From Giardia intestinalis (Eukaryota), in NCBI GenBank assembly GCA_000002435.2, contig AACB03000011.1: DNA of 5,185 nucleotides; one strand, written 5' to 3'. Shown here piece after piece: positions 1-5,185 of the stretch; position 1 is the first letter of the stretch, and each line of letters starts with the position of its first letter. The notes beneath the pieces were generated by a model that worked only from the letters and a program-made list of their open reading frames with translations, was not told the origin of the DNA and made no database searches. The translations under genes were made by a program, and so were the position numbers.

Positions 1-1373
1 ACACGGGGCGCTAGTGGTCATGCTTGGGCACCCTGCCCGCTGTCGGCTGCCCCACAGCGCGCGAACGGACCCCTGGGCCTGCGTGCCGAGCTGTCTCCCC
101 TGGTACTCCTCGCTCGCACCCGAGGCCTCTTGCCCCTATCATTCGGGTGTGCATCACGTCCAGACACGGTGCGATAGATGCCTAGCCGCGATGCCATACA
201 CACTCGACCAGGCCGGGCCAGGCCGGACGCCCCCCTGGATGGCCAGACACCCCGCCCTGCCTACGTTGGGCACTTCCTCGATGGGACTCGTCATCTGCCC
301 ACGCCGCAGCCCGGTGTTCGTCTGTCTGTCCTCCCGGGCAGCGGCGGTCCTTGGGTGCTGAGTCTGGCGAGCTGGTGCTGGGGGAAGAGGCTAGCCCCGT
401 GTGTCATTCGTACCATCGCACCGCGCCGTGCTGATCCCCCCATGGAACTGCCCGCCAGTGGCCGCCTCCGGTCCGGGGCGGCACAGCCCTGGCTCGGGCC
501 ATCCTCTGCTGCAGCGCCCCGGTGCCCCCTGGAGAGGATGGCCGGGTGCTATGTGCTACTGAGCCCTCGGGTGCATCGCTTCCCCACTGCCCCCCCTCAT
601 GTACCCACTCTGGGCGCCCCGGTACAGGGAACCTGGTCACTCTGGCCCTGGCCTCCAGGTGCTTGCCCTCCAATGGGCCATCCCTCATGCGCCTGTGTTT
701 GCCTGGCCCATTCTCCCCTGTCCTCTCTACCTCTCCTGCTCGGTCTCCGCTGGAGTCGCGGTGACGGCTGTTGACAGTCCCGGCCGGGCCCCCAGGTTTC
801 GCTCCATACCTGGGCCACATGCCTCCCACCAGCGCTGGCACCACATGGGTTGCTTGTCACAGATGGGACTGGCACGCACAGAAGAATATGGCTCCACGGC
901 GCTCTGCCGGTCTGTCCTGAGCTGGCGTCATCAGCCTGGACCCGCCCTTAGGGGGCCTCCTCCATCACCCGTGCCTCCCCACACCACCTCCTAAGCCGTC
1001 AGTCTGCTCTCTCAGGCGTGACCTTCTGTCGGCCTCCTGGGCCGTATGGGACCACCGCCCCGCTGCCCCCGCCATCTTGGCCAGACGCCTCCGGTGAGCC
1101 ACCATTCTGGAATAGCACGACACGTGTGGATGGGCTAGCTATGGCGCACGGTCCGCACCCTCCCTTCTCACGGACTCCCGGGGACAGTCCGGACGCGTCT
1201 CCCTTGTCCCCCGAATCGGTGGCCCCGGCCGATCCCCATCGTGCATCCTTATATGGGGCACTGCACACACCTGTCCACGCTGTCCCCTTGGGCCGGCCAC
1301 AGCTCACCCCGTGTGTCGATGGGCCAGAATTTGGGCTCCCCAAACCCCTCCACCCCCAAGCTGTTTCCTCGCC

Positions 1374-2140
1374 GGTTCTCTGGGCTCGCGCTTCCCTTTT
1401 TAGTGCAACAGCATTATGGTGCCTCGCGTATGTGCGCGGTGCAGTGGGCCGGTCTGTAGGCCTGCCTTTGACTGGAATCCTGGATCCCTGGGTTTCTGGC
1501 CCGACGCGTCGTCTTCTACCCCCAAACAGGCCTGCACTCTTCTTGGTCCACGGGCTATTTGTCTCTTTGTTTCCGCGGCCCAGGGCCTGCTGGTTGCGCC
1601 GGGGCGACGCTCATGGTGGATTTTATTTTTTCCAAAATCCAGAATTTGGGCCTGAAGACCGCCCCCGCAGGGCCTGGAGGATGCGGGGAATCGGTCCACC
1701 CACACCATGCGCTCGAGCAAAGGCCAAGCACCCACGCCATCACGTCTCATCCAGGACTCCTGCGCCGCCACGGAGGAGGATCGGCACCTTCGCCATCGAT
1801 CCTCCAGGATGCCCCCCTACCACTCCCCCTCACATGGCACGCCTCCCTCGGGCCTGTATGTCTGCATGCCGCTATGCCCTAACACCGCAGGCCGCCCTCT
1901 CCGCGGATCCACTAACACACAGCCTGCAGCGCCTGGCCCCCCTGGCCGTGACCCGCGCGCCCCCGCGCACAGGAGCATACCCCTGGAGCTGGGGAGAAGG
2001 CCCCCCTGGCCGCGCCCCCGCCGCGAGACCACGCGGGCACGGGGGCTGGGCGCCCCGGGCGGGCCCTTCCCCTCCGTCGTGAGGCTGCCTCCCCTCCAAT
2101 GTCCTTACCGCCTTGCGCGCATATTACGTAGTAAACCGCC
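1374..2140 (+). repeat. Tandem direct repeat, unit 1 (767 bp)
   Basis: Base-by-base comparison with 2148-2915 shows identity apart from one C-run length (C5 at ~1519-1523 against C6 in copy 2). Every six-frame ORF inside is duplicated at an offset of 774/775 bp, for example 1400-1771(-) against 2124-2546(-) and 1555-1743(-) against 2330-2518(-). No coding signal. Confidence 0.96.
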
Positions 2141-2147
2141 TCTGTCT

Positions 2148-2915
2148 GGTTCTCTGGGCTCGCGCTTCCCTTTTTAGTGCAACAGCATTATGGTGCCTCG
2201 CGTATGTGCGCGGTGCAGTGGGCCGGTCTGTAGGCCTGCCTTTGACTGGAATCCTGGATCCCTGGGTTTCTGGCCCGACGCGTCGTCTTCTACCCCCCAA
2301 ACAGGCCTGCACTCTTCTTGGTCCACGGGCTATTTGTCTCTTTGTTTCCGCGGCCCAGGGCCTGCTGGTTGCGCCGGGGCGACGCTCATGGTGGATTTTA
2401 TTTTTTCCAAAATCCAGAATTTGGGCCTGAAGACCGCCCCCGCAGGGCCTGGAGGATGCGGGGAATCGGTCCACCCACACCATGCGCTCGAGCAAAGGCC
2501 AAGCACCCACGCCATCACGTCTCATCCAGGACTCCTGCGCCGCCACGGAGGAGGATCGGCACCTTCGCCATCGATCCTCCAGGATGCCCCCCTACCACTC
2601 CCCCTCACATGGCACGCCTCCCTCGGGCCTGTATGTCTGCATGCCGCTATGCCCTAACACCGCAGGCCGCCCTCTCCGCGGATCCACTAACACACAGCCT
2701 GCAGCGCCTGGCCCCCCTGGCCGTGACCCGCGCGCCCCCGCGCACAGGAGCATACCCCTGGAGCTGGGGAGAAGGCCCCCCTGGCCGCGCCCCCGCCGCG
2801 AGACCACGCGGGCACGGGGGCTGGGCGCCCCGGGCGGGCCCTTCCCCTCCGTCGTGAGGCTGCCTCCCCTCCAATGTCCTTACCGCCTTGCGCGCATATT
2901 ACGTAGTAAACCGCC
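2148..2915 (+). repeat. Tandem direct repeat, unit 2 (768 bp), followed by the A15 tract
   Basis: Identical to unit 1 except one extra C at ~2294-2299. A 7-bp spacer tctgtct (2141-2147) separates the units. The unit ends gcgcgcatattacgtagtaaaccgcc, then cct plus A15. Confidence 0.96.
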
Positions 2916-2938
2916 CCTAAAAAAAAAAAAAAACCATG
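2890..2938 (+). promoter_or_regulatory. Candidate initiator region: AT-rich box (catattacgtagtaaa) plus A15 immediately upstream of the ORF ATG, leaving a near-zero 5' UTR
   Basis: This is the only strongly AT-rich stretch in a GC-rich context, and it ends 2 nt before the ATG at 2936. The same AT-rich box, without the A-run, closes repeat unit 1 at 2115-2140. A promoter role is inference only. Confidence 0.35.
2919..2933 (+). other. Perfect A15 tract, poly(A)-tail-like, at the 3' edge of repeat unit 2
   Basis: 15 consecutive A seen directly. It is absent at the equivalent position after unit 1, so it is not part of the repeat consensus. A retroelement ORF start follows 2 nt later. Confidence 0.93.
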
Positions 2939-3922
2939 CGTTCCGCCCTTTCCGCGCCTTCGGGAACCACGGAGATCGGGGCTTCCTCAGGCCCAGAGCC
3001 TCCCAACCACGCTCCAACCGACTCCCACAGGCCCCTACCTAGGGGCACTCCCGATCCTATGACGCTGGGTGACGGCAACGATGCCTCGACGACCGCCATG
3101 GCCCGGCCTTCCTCTTGCGAGCCCCTCTGCGGCTCCCACGGGCCCCCATCCCCCCAGCCTGGGCCTGGCAACAGCCGTTCCGCCACGGACAACTCTCCCA
3201 ATGAGTCTTCTCCTGTCCATGGCTTACAGGGCTCCGGGGCCTCGGTGGCCCGGGACGCCTCTCCTCCCTGCCTGTCGAACGACCTTCTGCCCTGTGGCCA
3301 GGAGCCCCTCCCGATTCCCGACGACGGCCTCCCATACGACCTGGGCCACGACAACTCCCCGTCCATCACGGACGAGCAGGAGGCCCGGGGCGCAGACCTG
3401 CCTGCTCCTGGGGGCCGTACGACTGTCTGCGAGCGCTGCGGAGAGGTGCTGCCTGACTCTGCGGCGATCGATGTCCACATCGGGATGCACCATCCGCCTC
3501 CCGGTTCACCTTCTCCGTCGCGCAGCCCTTCTCCGCTGTCGGGGTCTGCCCCTCCACCTGCAGCCGCCGAGCCCTCTCCCTCGCCAACGCCGGACCCTGT
3601 GTTCCCGTATGCATGCAGCATGTGCCGGGCCCGATACAAAACGGAGAGGGGGCTGAAGGCCCATATCGCCAGGCTCGGCCACTACCTCCCGCTCGACGCC
3701 ACAGTCCCCGAGCGCATCGGGGTGCCTAGTGGCAGCCCGTCCCCTGAGCTGCTTCGCCTCCTCACTGACGTATTCACAGAGATGGCGGGGCGCCTTCCTC
3801 CTGTAGAGGCCCTAGCGCGCTTCCTCTCGACGTGCCGCCGCATGGAGGGCTCTGGACGGCTCCCCCCGCGCAGTCGCTTCTCCGGAAGGGGCTGCTCGGC
3901 CGGGCATGGCAGGCGCTGTTGA
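2936..3922 (+). CDS. N-terminal ORF segment: Ser/Pro-rich region, two C2H2 zinc fingers and a linker. The true reading probably leaves this frame near 3860-3900.
   Basis: 328-aa ORF in the supplied track starting at ATG 2936. It contains VCERCGEVLPDSAAIDVHIGMHH and YACSMCRARYKTERGLKAHIARLGH. The downstream part, ELLRLLTDVFTEMAGRLPPVEALARFL, has protein-like composition. Confidence 0.7.
   Translation: MRSALSAPSGTTEIGASSGPEPPNHAPTDSHRPLPRGTPDPMTLGDGNDASTTAMARPSSCEPLCGSHGPPSPQPGPGNSRSATDNSPNESSPVHGLQGSGASVARDASPPCLSNDLLPCGQEPLPIPDDGLPYDLGHDNSPSITDEQEARGADLPAPGGRTTVCERCGEVLPDSAAIDVHIGMHHPPPGSPSPSRSPSPLSGSAPPPAAAEPSPSPTPDPVFPYACSMCRARYKTERGLKAHIARLGHYLPLDATVPERIGVPSGSPSPELLRLLTDVFTEMAGRLPPVEALARFLSTCRRMEGSGRLPPRSRFSGRGCSAGHGRRC
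3428..3493 (+). other. C2H2 zinc finger 1 (C-X2-C-X12-H-X3-H)
   Basis: Translated in frame 2: C ERC GEVLPDSAAIDV H IGM H. The spacing is canonical. Confidence 0.8.
3614..3682 (+). other. C2H2 zinc finger 2 (C-X2-C-X12-H-X5-H)
   Basis: Translated in frame 2: C SM C RARYKTERGLKA H IARLG H. It follows the aromatic residue (Y) two positions before the first Cys, as in classical fingers. Confidence 0.75.
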
Positions 3923-4104
3923 GCGAGACGTCCTCTGCCGCCAGGGTCCCCGAGCCCCAGGGCAAGGAGCGGGAAGCGATTGTCCATGAGCTCCACCCGC
4001 GCCCCATGCCTGTCTCTCTGCCCCCCGTCCATCACGTGCTCGGCCCGTCGCCCAAGATAACGGCCAAGGCGCTGCTGAAGGAGCTGCAGGCGATGAGGCC
4101 TGTC

Positions 4105-4332
4105 GCGGCCGGACCCTCTGGGCTGGGGAAGCCTCACCTCCTGCACCTTTGTGGGGCCGCCGGGGCTGCGGAGCTCTTCACCTCTGTCCTGACGACCCTC
4201 TTCTCCAGCAGGAACTGGGCCCAGCTCCAGCCCCTGTGCGAGTTCAGGCTGAAGCTTCTGCCCAAGTCTGGCGGCCGATGGCGCCCTATCGCAGTGCAGG
4301 AGACGCTTCTGGTCGCCTTCCACCGCTTGCTC
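4105..4332 (+). CDS. RT N-terminal fingers segment (frame 1): motifs 1 and 2
   Basis: AAGPSGLGK at 4105-4131 matches the RT motif PGPDGI. RPIAVQETLLVAFHRLL at 4282-4332 matches the R2/LINE motif RPISL......F..IL..RL. Confidence 0.8.
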
Positions 4333-4442
4333 CTGCGTCGGACTCCGCGCTCCGCAAGCTCCCGGCGTGGCAGCTGGCCTTTGAGCACCTCGCCCAGATG
4401 AAGGCGATCCGCGCGGCCGAGGAGCTGAAGAGGACACACCAC

Positions 4443-4481
4443 CTGCTCACGGTGGATGTGCGGAATGCCTTCAACAGCGTC
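4443..4481 (+). other. RT motif A (frame 0): LLTVDVRNAFNSV with the catalytic Asp
   Basis: Matches the consensus hhhhD..KAFD.V. The Asp codon gat is at 4455-4457. Confidence 0.8.
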
Positions 4482-4483
4482 CG

Positions 4484-4650
4484 CATTCCGTCATCCTCTT
4501 TGCGCTCCGCCGGGCAGGGGTGGTCCAGCCGACCGTCGCGTACATTGAGCGTTCCTCGCGGCTCGGCACTCCTCGGACCTCCCGCGGTCCCAGCGGGCGT
4601 GCACAGGGGACCCGCTGTCCATGGCGATGTTCTGCCAGAGCCTTGTTGGC
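4484..4650 (+). CDS. RT palm segment between motifs A and B', read across a frame 2 to frame 1 switch at the gggg run
   Basis: Frame 2 reads HSVILFALRRAGVVQPTVAYIERSSRLGT...GRAQG. Frame 1 reads GDPLSMAMFCQSLVG. The sequence shows caggggaccc where cagggggaccc would give in-frame QGDPLS. Confidence 0.75.
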
Positions 4651-4656
4651 CGGTGA

Positions 4657-4800
4657 GACGTACCTCGGCCAGTCAAGGTCGTTGCATACGCCGACGACCT
4701 CGTCATTGCGTCAGAGGAGGCGATTCCCATAGATACCGTGAAGAGTGACGCGCAGTTCGCCCTCTCCCGCATAGGGCTCACGGTCGAGCTCTCGAAGTGC
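4657..4800 (+). CDS. RT motif C segment (frame 1): VKVVAYADDLVIASEE...ALSRIGLTVELSK
   Basis: YADD at 4687-4698 is the catalytic YXDD box. The following GL.V.LSK resembles the post-YXDD G(L/M).LN..KS segment of R2-type RTs. An in-frame TGA lies immediately upstream at 4654-4656. Confidence 0.85.
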
Positions 4801-5185
4801 TCCTCGACCCAGGCCGGGCGATCTCCTTCATGGGCACCCGCGTGCTCAAGCACTCCTCCTTCAACCTCGCGCAGACATCGGCCCGCCGGCTCCACGAGCA
4901 TCTCGCCGTCCTCCGTGCTTCGGGTCTCTCACTCCACGACCGCCTCAGGCTCCTGTCTGCCTGCGTCGTCCCTGCAGTTAACTATGGACCCCTTGTTGAC
5001 GACTACCCGGCCCGTCCCCCTATGCCGACGTCGATGCGCAGATAGTGGAGGAGGTCGCGACCCTTCTGGAGATCCCCGAACCCCTTGCGAAGACCCTTGC
5101 TCTGACGCCCCGCGCGAAGTACGGCCTCGGACTGGTGCTGCCCATCACTACTACGACGAGATGCACAGGCAGCGCCAGGACATGA
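4797..5185 (+). CDS. RT motif E and thumb segments: frame 0 up to ~5010, then frame 2 to the window end
   Basis: Frame 0 reads VLLDPGRAISFMGTRVLKH...HDRLRLLSACVVPAVNYGPLVDD, which includes the F(L/M)G motif. Frame 2 reads YADVDAQIVEEVATLLEIPEPLAKTLALTPRAKYGLGLVLP, which matches the R2 thumb pattern LDVQI...V...L.LP...PK.....A...GGLAIP. Confidence 0.75.

Follow-up and report, generated by a model that had tools for sequence, protein, structure and literature searches.

One-base frame breaks in a Giardia GilM/GilT-type retrotransposon copy and their likely technical origin

A junction of two head-to-tail copies

Does a retrotransposon whose reading frame is broken many times in a Giardia assembly stand for a dead copy, or for one that merely lost bases on its way into the record? 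The locus that raises this question is a small contig made up solely of repeat, and the window analyzed here is its complete record, a stretch of 5,185 nt. Here two copies of a Giardia non-LTR retrotransposon of the GilM/GilT (Genie) type meet head to tail: the long 3'UTR of an upstream copy, which includes a tandem duplication and has the A15 tract at its end, is followed by the ORF of the next copy, of which the first two-thirds are present (Table 1). The frame of this ORF is broken at 13 sites. We consider it likely that the breaks reflect technical loss of bases during the making of the record, and not mutation of the element, which is then possibly intact.

Table 1. Features of the 5,185-nt window; ^ marks the place of an absent base
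Feature	Position	Strand	Basis or remark
GC-rich non-coding stretch, presumed proximal 3'UTR of upstream copy	1..1373	+	position
Tandem unit 1 (770 nt) in 3'UTR	1374..2143	+	repeat finding, pairwise alignment
Tandem unit 2 (771 nt)	2148..2918	+	last ~105 nt contain a block shared with other lineages of Giardia elements
A15 tract, poly(A) end of upstream copy, directly before next copy	2919..2933	+	sequence
Element ORF (N-terminal region and RT), broken in the record, cut by window end	2936..5185	+	
First zinc-finger-like motif C-x2-C-x12-H-x4-H (CERCGEVLPDSAAIDVHIGMHH)	3455..3523	+	translation; aa 174-196
C2H2 zinc finger (YACSMCRARYKTERGLKAHIARLGH)	3608..3673	+	Pfam zf-C2H2_4, E = 4.8e-6; aa 225-246
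Reverse-transcriptase domain core (RWRPIA, TVDVRNAFNSV, QGDPLS, YADD, ISFMGT)	4260..4810	+	Pfam RVT_1, E = 5e-15; alignments
Break 1: base absent after 3867 (cc^gcg), by C6 run	3862..3868	+	frame 2 to 1; relatives read RLPPSR.LLRRGLL
Break 2: base absent after 4346 (act cc^gcg)	4345..4347	+	frame 1 to 0
Break 3: base absent after 4480 (gt^ccg)	4479..4481	+	repair gives back NAFNSVPHSVILF
Break 4: one base absent in gag cg ttc, ~4549, exact site ambiguous	4547..4552	+	
Break 5: base absent after 4583 (ccc^gcg)	4581..4584	+	repair gives back DLPAVPAGV
Break 6: base absent in codon preceding Q of QGDPLS (gtg c^a cag)	4602..4603	+	
Break 7: base absent in G4 run (cag gg^g gac)	4606..4609	+	repair gives back QGDPLS
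Break 8: base absent after 4646 (gt^tgg)	4645..4647	+	repair gives SLVWP; L006 reads SLVWPVESFL
Break 9: base absent after 4654 (gt^gag)	4653..4656	+	junction creates apparent TGA 4654-4656
Break 10: base absent in t^c aag, ~4673	4673..4675	+	Y in relatives
Break 11: base absent after 4817 (gg^gcg), inside GGG	4816..4818	+	repair gives back STQAGAISFMGTR
Break 12: base absent after 5008 (tac cc^ggc)	5006..5010	+	repair gives VDDYPGPSPY; not the C5 run
Break 13: base absent at ccc^at cac, ~5143	5141..5145	+	repair gives LVLPHHYYDEM

The upstream part of the window has at least 2.9 kb without coding homology and ends in the A15 tract, the ATG of the next copy coming 2 nt further on. The first 1,373 nt have no RT or endonuclease homology by tblastn, no similarity to any related locus compared, and no Rfam match. 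The tandem units that follow are separated by GTCT and have a period of 774/775. Tandem Repeats Finder, with its period limit of 500, gave no output, and the units were defined by repeat finding and pairwise alignment. The preliminary description of this DNA had given them 768 bp each, which is too short, and had seen a homopolymer length as their sole difference. Such a difference does exist (C5 at 1519-1523 versus C6 at 2293-2298), but there is also a T/C difference at 2141/2916; otherwise the units are identical. Within the conserved block at the end of the second unit, positions 2814-2869 are 83-92% identical to the 5' ends of three related loci (L005, L006, and L008), and a search for RNA structure in this conserved end of the 3'UTR gave no compensatory pairs. 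The same three loci have the same junction, an A-run and then C(1-3)ATG, which occurs twice on one contig in L005. Giardia elements of this type are known to form head-to-tail arrays and to have unusually long 3'UTRs (PMC5537684). No telomeric repeat or rDNA was found within the 5,185 nt, and Rfam gave 0 matches.

The downstream ORF has the Pfam RVT_1 domain, and its nearest relatives are Giardia RT/endonuclease ORFs, the top protein matches being the G. duodenalis reverse transcriptase/endonuclease entries ESU40772, ESU38294, and ESU40182 (best E = 4e-125). Two zinc-finger motifs lie within the same ORF as the RT. The first of them has no separate Pfam report and is conserved in the relatives P0009 and P0010. 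The window ends at 5185, just past the RT thumb (HHYYDEMHRQRQDM), and relatives such as P0006 run more than 300 aa further; the C-terminal part of the ORF, in which elements of this type have a CCHC motif and a restriction-enzyme-like endonuclease domain, lies outside the window. Elements of this kind copy by target-primed reverse transcription: their ORF protein associates with the RNA that encodes it, makes a nick in the target DNA, and starts reverse transcription at the 3' end.

On sequence comparison, the element appears to be a diverged, separate lineage among GilM/GilT (Genie), somewhat more distant than the others. Compared with the best Giardia matches, its conceptual translation is 55-59% identical in amino acids when left uncorrected and 60-63% identical once the breaks are repaired. 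At the DNA level it is 66-72% identical to related Giardia loci, and the other Giardia lineages are 62-71% identical among themselves. Synonymous sites are saturated at 66-72% DNA identity, so that dN/dS against these relatives would be uninformative. No relative closer than 63% amino acid identity came out of two protein searches, nor out of scans of JGI metagenomes (two) and of IMG/VR (one). An exact-protein look-up with the 328-aa ORF returned no identical record. The JGI scan with lineage-specific peptides gave 48 pattern matches, 0 of them confirmed, and the one with a conserved 3'UTR 20-mer gave 10 loci, 0 of them related by blastn or tblastn. The IMG/VR scan for sister copies of the lineage gave no matches. 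Its lineage seems to have no representative among the proteins searched.

Position and type of the frame breaks

We mapped the breaks by frameshift-aware protein-to-DNA alignment against nine relatives and by DNA alignments. Each of the 13 is an isolated one-base deletion, and there are 0 events of the +1 type. Adding 13 single bases yields an uninterrupted ORF of 754 codons that contains 0 stops, compared with 8-13 stops in each of the other five raw frames. The repaired ORF has two C2H2 fingers and all the RT motifs. It shows no in-frame indel relative to P0001 over ~390 aa, and it retains the expected residue in 161 of the 181 columns that are invariant in relatives; the remainder are mostly conservative changes and the catalytic motifs are intact. 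Support for the frame changes that is free of homologues comes from the codon-position GC signal, which rotates from frame 2 to frame 1 at ~3865 and to frame 0 at ~4346, and is then in frame 1 by ~4673, in frame 0 at ~4817, and in frame 2 at ~5008. In 2936-3290 this signal is weak, and compensated shifts could stay hidden there.

Two other candidates were rejected. If breaks 6 and 7 were read as a single -2 at 4602, QGDPLS would have T in place of its invariant Q, at the cost of three base changes. The apparent frame changes in 3092-3199 relative to P0010 lie in a Pro/Ser/Gly-rich segment of low identity, for which P0009 supports the main frame.

This map changes several points of the preliminary description, which had counted at least six changes of frame along the RT homology and listed six sites. 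The frame does change repeatedly, but the total is 13 and all are -1. Four of the listed sites (the C6 run at 3862-3867, 4346/47, 4480/81, and the G4 run at 4606-4609) were placed within 2 nt. The other two were misplaced: the break put near 4796-4800 is at 4817/18, within GGG, and the one assigned to a C5 run at 5015-5019 is at 5008/09, the C5 run itself being at 5016-5020 and in frame as S-P-Y. Seven breaks were absent from the list (~4549, 4583, 4602, 4646, 4654, 4673, and 5143). One base does restore the NSV motif as predicted, which then reads NSV-P-HSVIL. The motif QGDPLS also returns, but two single bases (after 4602 and 4608) are needed to join it to AVPAGV. Finally, the in-frame TGA at 4654-4656 had been taken for a substitution lesion, and thereby for an argument in favor of real decay. 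It straddles gt^gag between two -1 sites, and the repaired frames SLVWPVETYLGQ match the WPVESFL of the relatives. Since the TGA is a product of the gap junction, this counter-argument falls away.

Technical loss, decay, or a mixture of copies

Isolated losses of one base, together with intact motifs and the lack of a real stop, make the breaks look technical: artefacts would be expected to appear as single-base, one-directional indels in an otherwise intact ORF, which is what the 13 losses in 754 codons amount to. The losses would have arisen by base-calling, consensus, or polishing errors, and would be densest in a low-quality patch at 4480-4673. We infer that the DNA has the bases that the record lacks, and, judging from the repaired reading, the underlying copy is probably intact over its visible part. 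There are precedents in this organism. PacBio homopolymer errors have frame-shifted or truncated genes in a Giardia WB assembly, and Xu et al. 2020 corrected these solely at sites where 10 or more Illumina reads gave support of 50% or higher (PMC7000408), and Giardia Nanopore reads lose bases more often than they gain them (PMC7048089). The breaks resemble such long-read homopolymer artefacts in being deletions only, Nanopore being deletion-biased. They differ from them in their strong clustering and in the location of about half of the gaps at runs of 1-2 bases.

The distribution of the breaks sets conditions on a technical origin. They had been described as clustering at homopolymers, which holds for part of them: 6 of the 13 adjoin a run of at least 3, compared with 18.6% of all junctions (P = 0.02, and P = 0.012 in a permutation test of the mean), but about half do not, 7 being at runs of 1-2 bases. 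Among the three runs of at least 5 in 3865-5185, one bears a break, and the frame continues through the other two, the C6 at 4021-4026 and the C5 at 5016-5020. The association with homopolymers is modest and the classic homopolymer signature incomplete. The breaks are also bunched, with 8 in 4480-4673 (~195 nt; scan P = 0.0065 to 0.0008) and 0 in 3290-3864. Their density is ~1% over 3865-5185 (13 in 1,321 nt), whereas the tandem units, 1,540 nt in total, show one indel difference versus ~15 expected at the rate of the RT part (Fisher P = 5e-4). Uniform noise across the assembly would not give so uneven a density. The earlier proposal that the indels are technical and the element maybe intact gains support from their type and from the conserved reading, but a uniform noisy-read model does not fit. 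The artefact reading needs either a patch of low quality at this place or errors that depend on sequence context and are repeated identically in the two tandem units. Four or 5 of the 13 gaps are directly 5' of GCG, compared with 3.2% of junctions (P = 6e-4 to 3e-5; post hoc), a bias that suggests a systematic technical error.

What speaks against a technical origin is that Giardia commonly has frame-shifted copies of these elements that are genuinely dead. The window could hold a recently inactivated copy with 13 real one-base deletions, caused for example by replication slippage in short G/C runs, that belongs to or resembles a dead family like GilD. Dead copies of this sort are well documented, and breaks are likewise present in the comparator loci taken from short-read assemblies. 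That the RT part differs so sharply in lesion density from the N-terminal part and from the tandem units would be natural for the history of one segment, and the breaks away from runs of at least 3 fit decay as well. However, the dead relatives have other lesions. The comparator copies (L001-L006 and L008) come from 454, Illumina, and metagenome assemblies. Their lesions are substitution stops and deletions of ~4, 16, and 40 nt, with 0 isolated -1 among them. All 13 lesions of the window are isolated -1, compared with 0 of ~10 in the comparators, as counted by eye from the alignments (Fisher P = 9e-7). On a rough count, the comparators have ~0.3-0.6 stops per indel; at this rate, 13 indels should be accompanied by several substitution stops, and the window has none. 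Nor does it have an insertion, a deletion of more than 1 nt, or an in-frame indel, all of which dead relatives show, and its conserved residues and motifs are retained. Moreover, 8 deletions in ~195 nt of the catalytic core, with a bias toward a following GCG, match no known mutational pattern. We regard genuine decay as unlikely.

Still less probable is a mixed origin, in which the record is a collapsed or mis-polished consensus of several slightly differing copies, or was built with reads of other RT lineages cross-mapped to the most conserved RT segment. The gaps would then fall where copies differ, and some lesions could be real in single copies. The elements do sit in multi-copy tandem arrays, and the breaks concentrate in the RT segment that is most conserved between lineages (4480-4673). 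Furthermore, all 13 can be parsed as losses of a third codon position, 10 of them with a residue backed by homologues; the chance of such a parse is 53% per site (P = 0.075 for 10/13 and 3e-4 for 13/13), but it is partly forced by codon degeneracy and the conservative count is not significant. The N-terminal part and the tandem units are clean though equally multi-copy, and a mixed origin is in any case a sub-type of artefact with no distinct biological reading.

It is hardly conceivable that the deletions are real and that the frame is restored during expression, through serial recoding or insertional RNA editing, which would be unprecedented for a Giardia nuclear gene. The sole point in favor of this is the perfect conservation of the repaired reading on either flank of every gap. 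The 13 sites have no slippery or stimulatory motif in common, the relatives have these residues encoded in ungapped DNA, and no such mechanism is known to us for Giardia nuclear genes.

Known Giardia elements and significance

GilM and GilT, sub-telomeric elements that point toward the chromosome end and were reportedly described by Arkhipova and Morrison in 2001, are said to correspond to the Genie 1/1A elements of Burke et al. 2002. The latter authors reportedly associated a 771-bp repeat with Genie 1, and tandem unit 2 of the window has the same length. Elements of the CRE clade (CRE1/2, SLACS, and CZAR) likewise have a single ORF, which carries zinc fingers in its N-terminal part. By RT domain, this clade is the one with which GilM and GilT group (PMC10088271). 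The copy studied here is like GilM and GilT in its single long ORF, with N-terminal zinc fingers and then the RT, and in its nearest relatives; the likeness extends to the head-to-tail copies with an A-tract junction and a very long 3'UTR (PMC5537684), and to the GC-rich sequence with many G/C runs (PMC10088271). It differs from them in its identity of only 55-63% (amino acids) and 66-72% (DNA). In contrast to the site-specific non-LTR elements of the CRE clade, the spliced-leader target is absent from the window.

The copies of GilD, which is said to be Genie 2, reportedly carried multiple internal deletions, nucleotide substitutions, and frame shifts in the study of Arkhipova and Morrison 2001. 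The window resembles GilD, as known from this description, in being a Giardia non-LTR element whose deposited ORF is interrupted by frame shifts. It differs in having only isolated -1 gaps, with no internal deletions, in-frame indels, or post-repair stops. Inverted repeats, which have reportedly been seen in Genie 2, were not found in the window by repeat finding.

These results show that frame breaks alone are insufficient to call pseudogenes in GC-rich repeat contigs, and that the lesion spectrum separates error (isolated -1) from decay (stops and multi-base deletions). If the gaps were real, the copy would be one more dead element, an ordinary result. If they are technical, an apparently dead retrotransposon is an intact, possibly active one; we see about an even chance that the corrected element is of this kind and represents a lineage of Giardia telomere-type retrotransposons that has not been described before. 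This would bear on the census of mobile elements in Giardia ("two telomeric, one dead"), and likewise on how the retrotransposons of its chromosome ends are viewed.

Number and position of the frame breaks

Between 3865 and 5185 the frame of the element ORF breaks 13 times. This emerges from protein-to-DNA alignments of nine relatives that allow for frameshifts, from DNA alignments to relatives and from inspection of each junction. At the well-separated breaks the codon-position GC signal rotates, a check that is free of homologues. In every case a single base is missing, and the insertion of one base per break gives 754 codons with no stop, against 8 to 13 stops in each of the other five raw frames. 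These are the first codons of the ORF, whose endonuclease part lies beyond the window. The frame changes of the preliminary description are therefore real, but it under-counted them (at least six) and partly misplaced them: four of its six sites are correct, the break put near 4796-4800 lies at 4817/18, and the one put at a C5 run lies at 5008/09, the run itself (5016-5020) reading in frame. It also took the TGA at 4654-4656 as a sign of real decay. This codon spans the junction gt^gag, and after single-base insertions at 4646, 4654 and 4673 the frame reads FCQSLVWPVETYLGQxKVVAYADD, matching the relatives (WPVESFLAQYEVLAYADD, and FCLSLVWPVESFLSAYKVLAYADD in L006, a contig with a related Giardia copy), so that the argument for decay fails.

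In the Pro/Ser/Gly-rich N-terminal segment at 3092-3199, another frame aligns slightly better to the related protein P0010 (PPWPGLPLASPSAAPTGPH against PPDAGLPQPHAPSAAAPGPH); the main frame is backed by a second relative, P0009. Compensated shifts could be hidden within 2936-3290.

Coordinates of the frame breaks and other features (window positions unless a comparator contig or locus, L001 to L008, is named)
Feature	Position	Remark
Frame breaks	after 3867, 4346, 4480, ~4549, 4583, 4602, 4608, 4646, 4654, ~4673, 4817, 5008, 5143	
GCG-adjacent gaps	3867, 4346, 4548, 4583, 4817	cc^gcg three times, gg^gcg, possibly ga^gcg
Tandem unit 1	1374-2143	770 nt
Tandem unit 2	2148-2918	771 nt
A15 tract	2919-2933	directly after unit 2; ATG two bases further on
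Conserved block and junction	2814-2938; L005 61-181 and 2690-2810; L006 1-115; L008 1-111	
Short direct repeat	1935-1954, 1999-2018, 2710-2729, 2774-2793	
Broken reference copies	L001 11227-11439; L002 1476-1530	

Identity of the element

The window (5,185 nt, 66% G+C) is the entire source record, and the coding trail of the element opens at ATG 2936. The top matches of the conceptual translation of 3868-5185 are Giardia duodenalis "reverse transcriptase/endonuclease" proteins (ESU40772, ESU38294 and ESU40182; E=4e-125, identity 55-59%). By Pfam, this translation contains RVT_1 (E=5e-15) and the N-terminal ORF contains a C2H2 finger. For the N-terminal 328 aa, the matches were four unnamed proteins (41-63% identity) encoded in Logan and ENA assemblies, and those of the underlying contigs that we fetched run on into the same RT. 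In the protein collection searched, the frame-repaired protein has no match above 63% identity, to be compared with 62-71% among known Giardia lineages. Judged by its sequence, the element is thus a diverged lineage of Giardia non-LTR retrotransposons in the GilM/GilT (Genie) group: the group is known, and this rather remote member of it is new. Exact-protein look-up, protein searches, scans of JGI metagenomes and a scan of IMG/VR identified no sister copies. Compared with P0006, another related protein, the annotated Giardia protein P0001 (ESU40772, GS_b) has two internal deletions that truncate it, and the Logan copy L002 has a substitution stop (H*KQP) within the CCHC region, which shows that the public reference proteins of this family derive partly from broken copies.

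The tandem-copy junction upstream

No coding homology was found for at least 2.9 kb 5' of the ORF. Two tandem units, separated by GTCT, differ there only in a C5/C6 run and in one base (T/C) three positions from the unit end. Within the ~105 nt that precede the A-run, the block ACGGGGGCTNGGGCGCCCCGGGCGGGCCCT..CCCCTCC ... AGTAAA has 83-92% identity in contigs of three other lineages (L005, L006 and L008), each time followed again by an A-run and C(1-3)ATG. This 3'UTR-end/A-run/ATG junction is present twice on the single contig L005, at the start and end of 1-2936 (ENA ERZ27287561, k141_210258). The ORF between them is lost after ~336 aa, and L005 represents a genuinely decayed copy, a tandem-array element with an internal deletion. 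Giardia elements occur as head-to-tail copies with an unusually long 3'UTR (PMC5537684). Since the window shares this layout and this long 3'UTR, it is the junction of two tandem element copies. Its first part (1-1373) is GC-rich, with long spurious ORFs and no similarity to the fetched Giardia loci, proteins or Rfam families, and is presumed to be the lineage-specific 3'UTR of the upstream copy. Neither telomere repeats nor rRNA were found in the window.

The ~45-nt GC-rich part of the conserved block and the AGTAAA, just 5' of the A-run/CCATG, are kept to this extent though the RTs of these lineages are only ~55-63% identical. They may be a candidate 3'-end recognition element for reverse transcription, or a promoter that serves the copy downstream; the block shows no compensatory pairs in RNAalifold. 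Within the tandem units, 1669-1848 and 2444-2623 have weak protein-level similarity (35% over 60 aa) to the Pro-rich C-terminal tail of P0006, as has 1749-2144 to the tail of P0010, which may be low-complexity noise or a hint of origin from former coding sequence. Each unit also contains two copies of the short direct repeat GGCCCCCCTGGCCG(T/C)G(A/C)CCC, with a spacing of 64 nt.

Origin of the frame breaks

Technical indels on an intact element are the best-supported interpretation, and a likely one. All 13 lesions are isolated single-base losses, with no insertions or longer deletions, and there are no in-frame indels relative to P0001 over ~390 aa. The same analysis of the comparators L001-L006 and L008 (454, Illumina and metagenome assemblies) revealed stops due to substitutions, deletions of about 4, 16 and 40 nt, and no isolated single-base loss (13 of 13 lesions in the window versus 0 of ~10 in the comparators, the latter counted by eye; Fisher P=9e-7). 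After repair, the protein retains 161 of the 181 columns that are invariant among at least five Giardia relatives, 2 further columns are residues at gaps, and the remaining changes are mostly conservative (K/R, V/I/M, A/S); every catalytic motif is intact. Four or five of the 13 gaps lie directly 5' of GCG, often inside GC palindromes such as CCGCGG or GCGC, versus 3.2% of junctions (P=6e-4 to 3e-5, post hoc), a context dependence that fits systematic technical error. In the re-assembly of Giardia WB, genes were truncated by PacBio homopolymer errors and mended only with sufficient short-read support (PMC7000408), and Giardia Nanopore reads lose more bases than they gain (PMC7048089).

A simple error model does not account for everything. 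The clustering at homopolymers proposed earlier is only modest: 6 of 13 gaps adjoin a run of at least 3, versus 18.6% of junctions (P=0.02), and two of the three runs of at least 5 in the break region are without a gap. The density is also uneven: 8 of the 13 gaps fall in 4480-4673, ~195 nt over RT motifs 3-5 (scan P=0.0065 to 0.0008), none falls in 3290-3864, and a single indel separates the two tandem units, against ~15 expected at the rate of the RT part. An artefact would therefore require either a local patch of low quality or coverage, or context-specific errors recurring identically in both tandem units, or a consensus that was disturbed, where the RT is most conserved, by reads of other copies or lineages. 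This last possibility, a mixed or collapsed consensus, counts as a sub-type of artefact, and is compatible with the fact that every gap can be read as the loss of a third codon position (conservative count P=0.075, not significant). Genuine recent decay of this copy, for which the TGA had seemed to speak, is unlikely, as lesion spectrum, conservation and context set it apart from genuinely decayed relatives. The breaks as such probably have no biological origin, and the results are of value mainly for the annotation of the element and as a warning, for GC-rich repeat contigs, not to infer pseudogenes from frame breaks.
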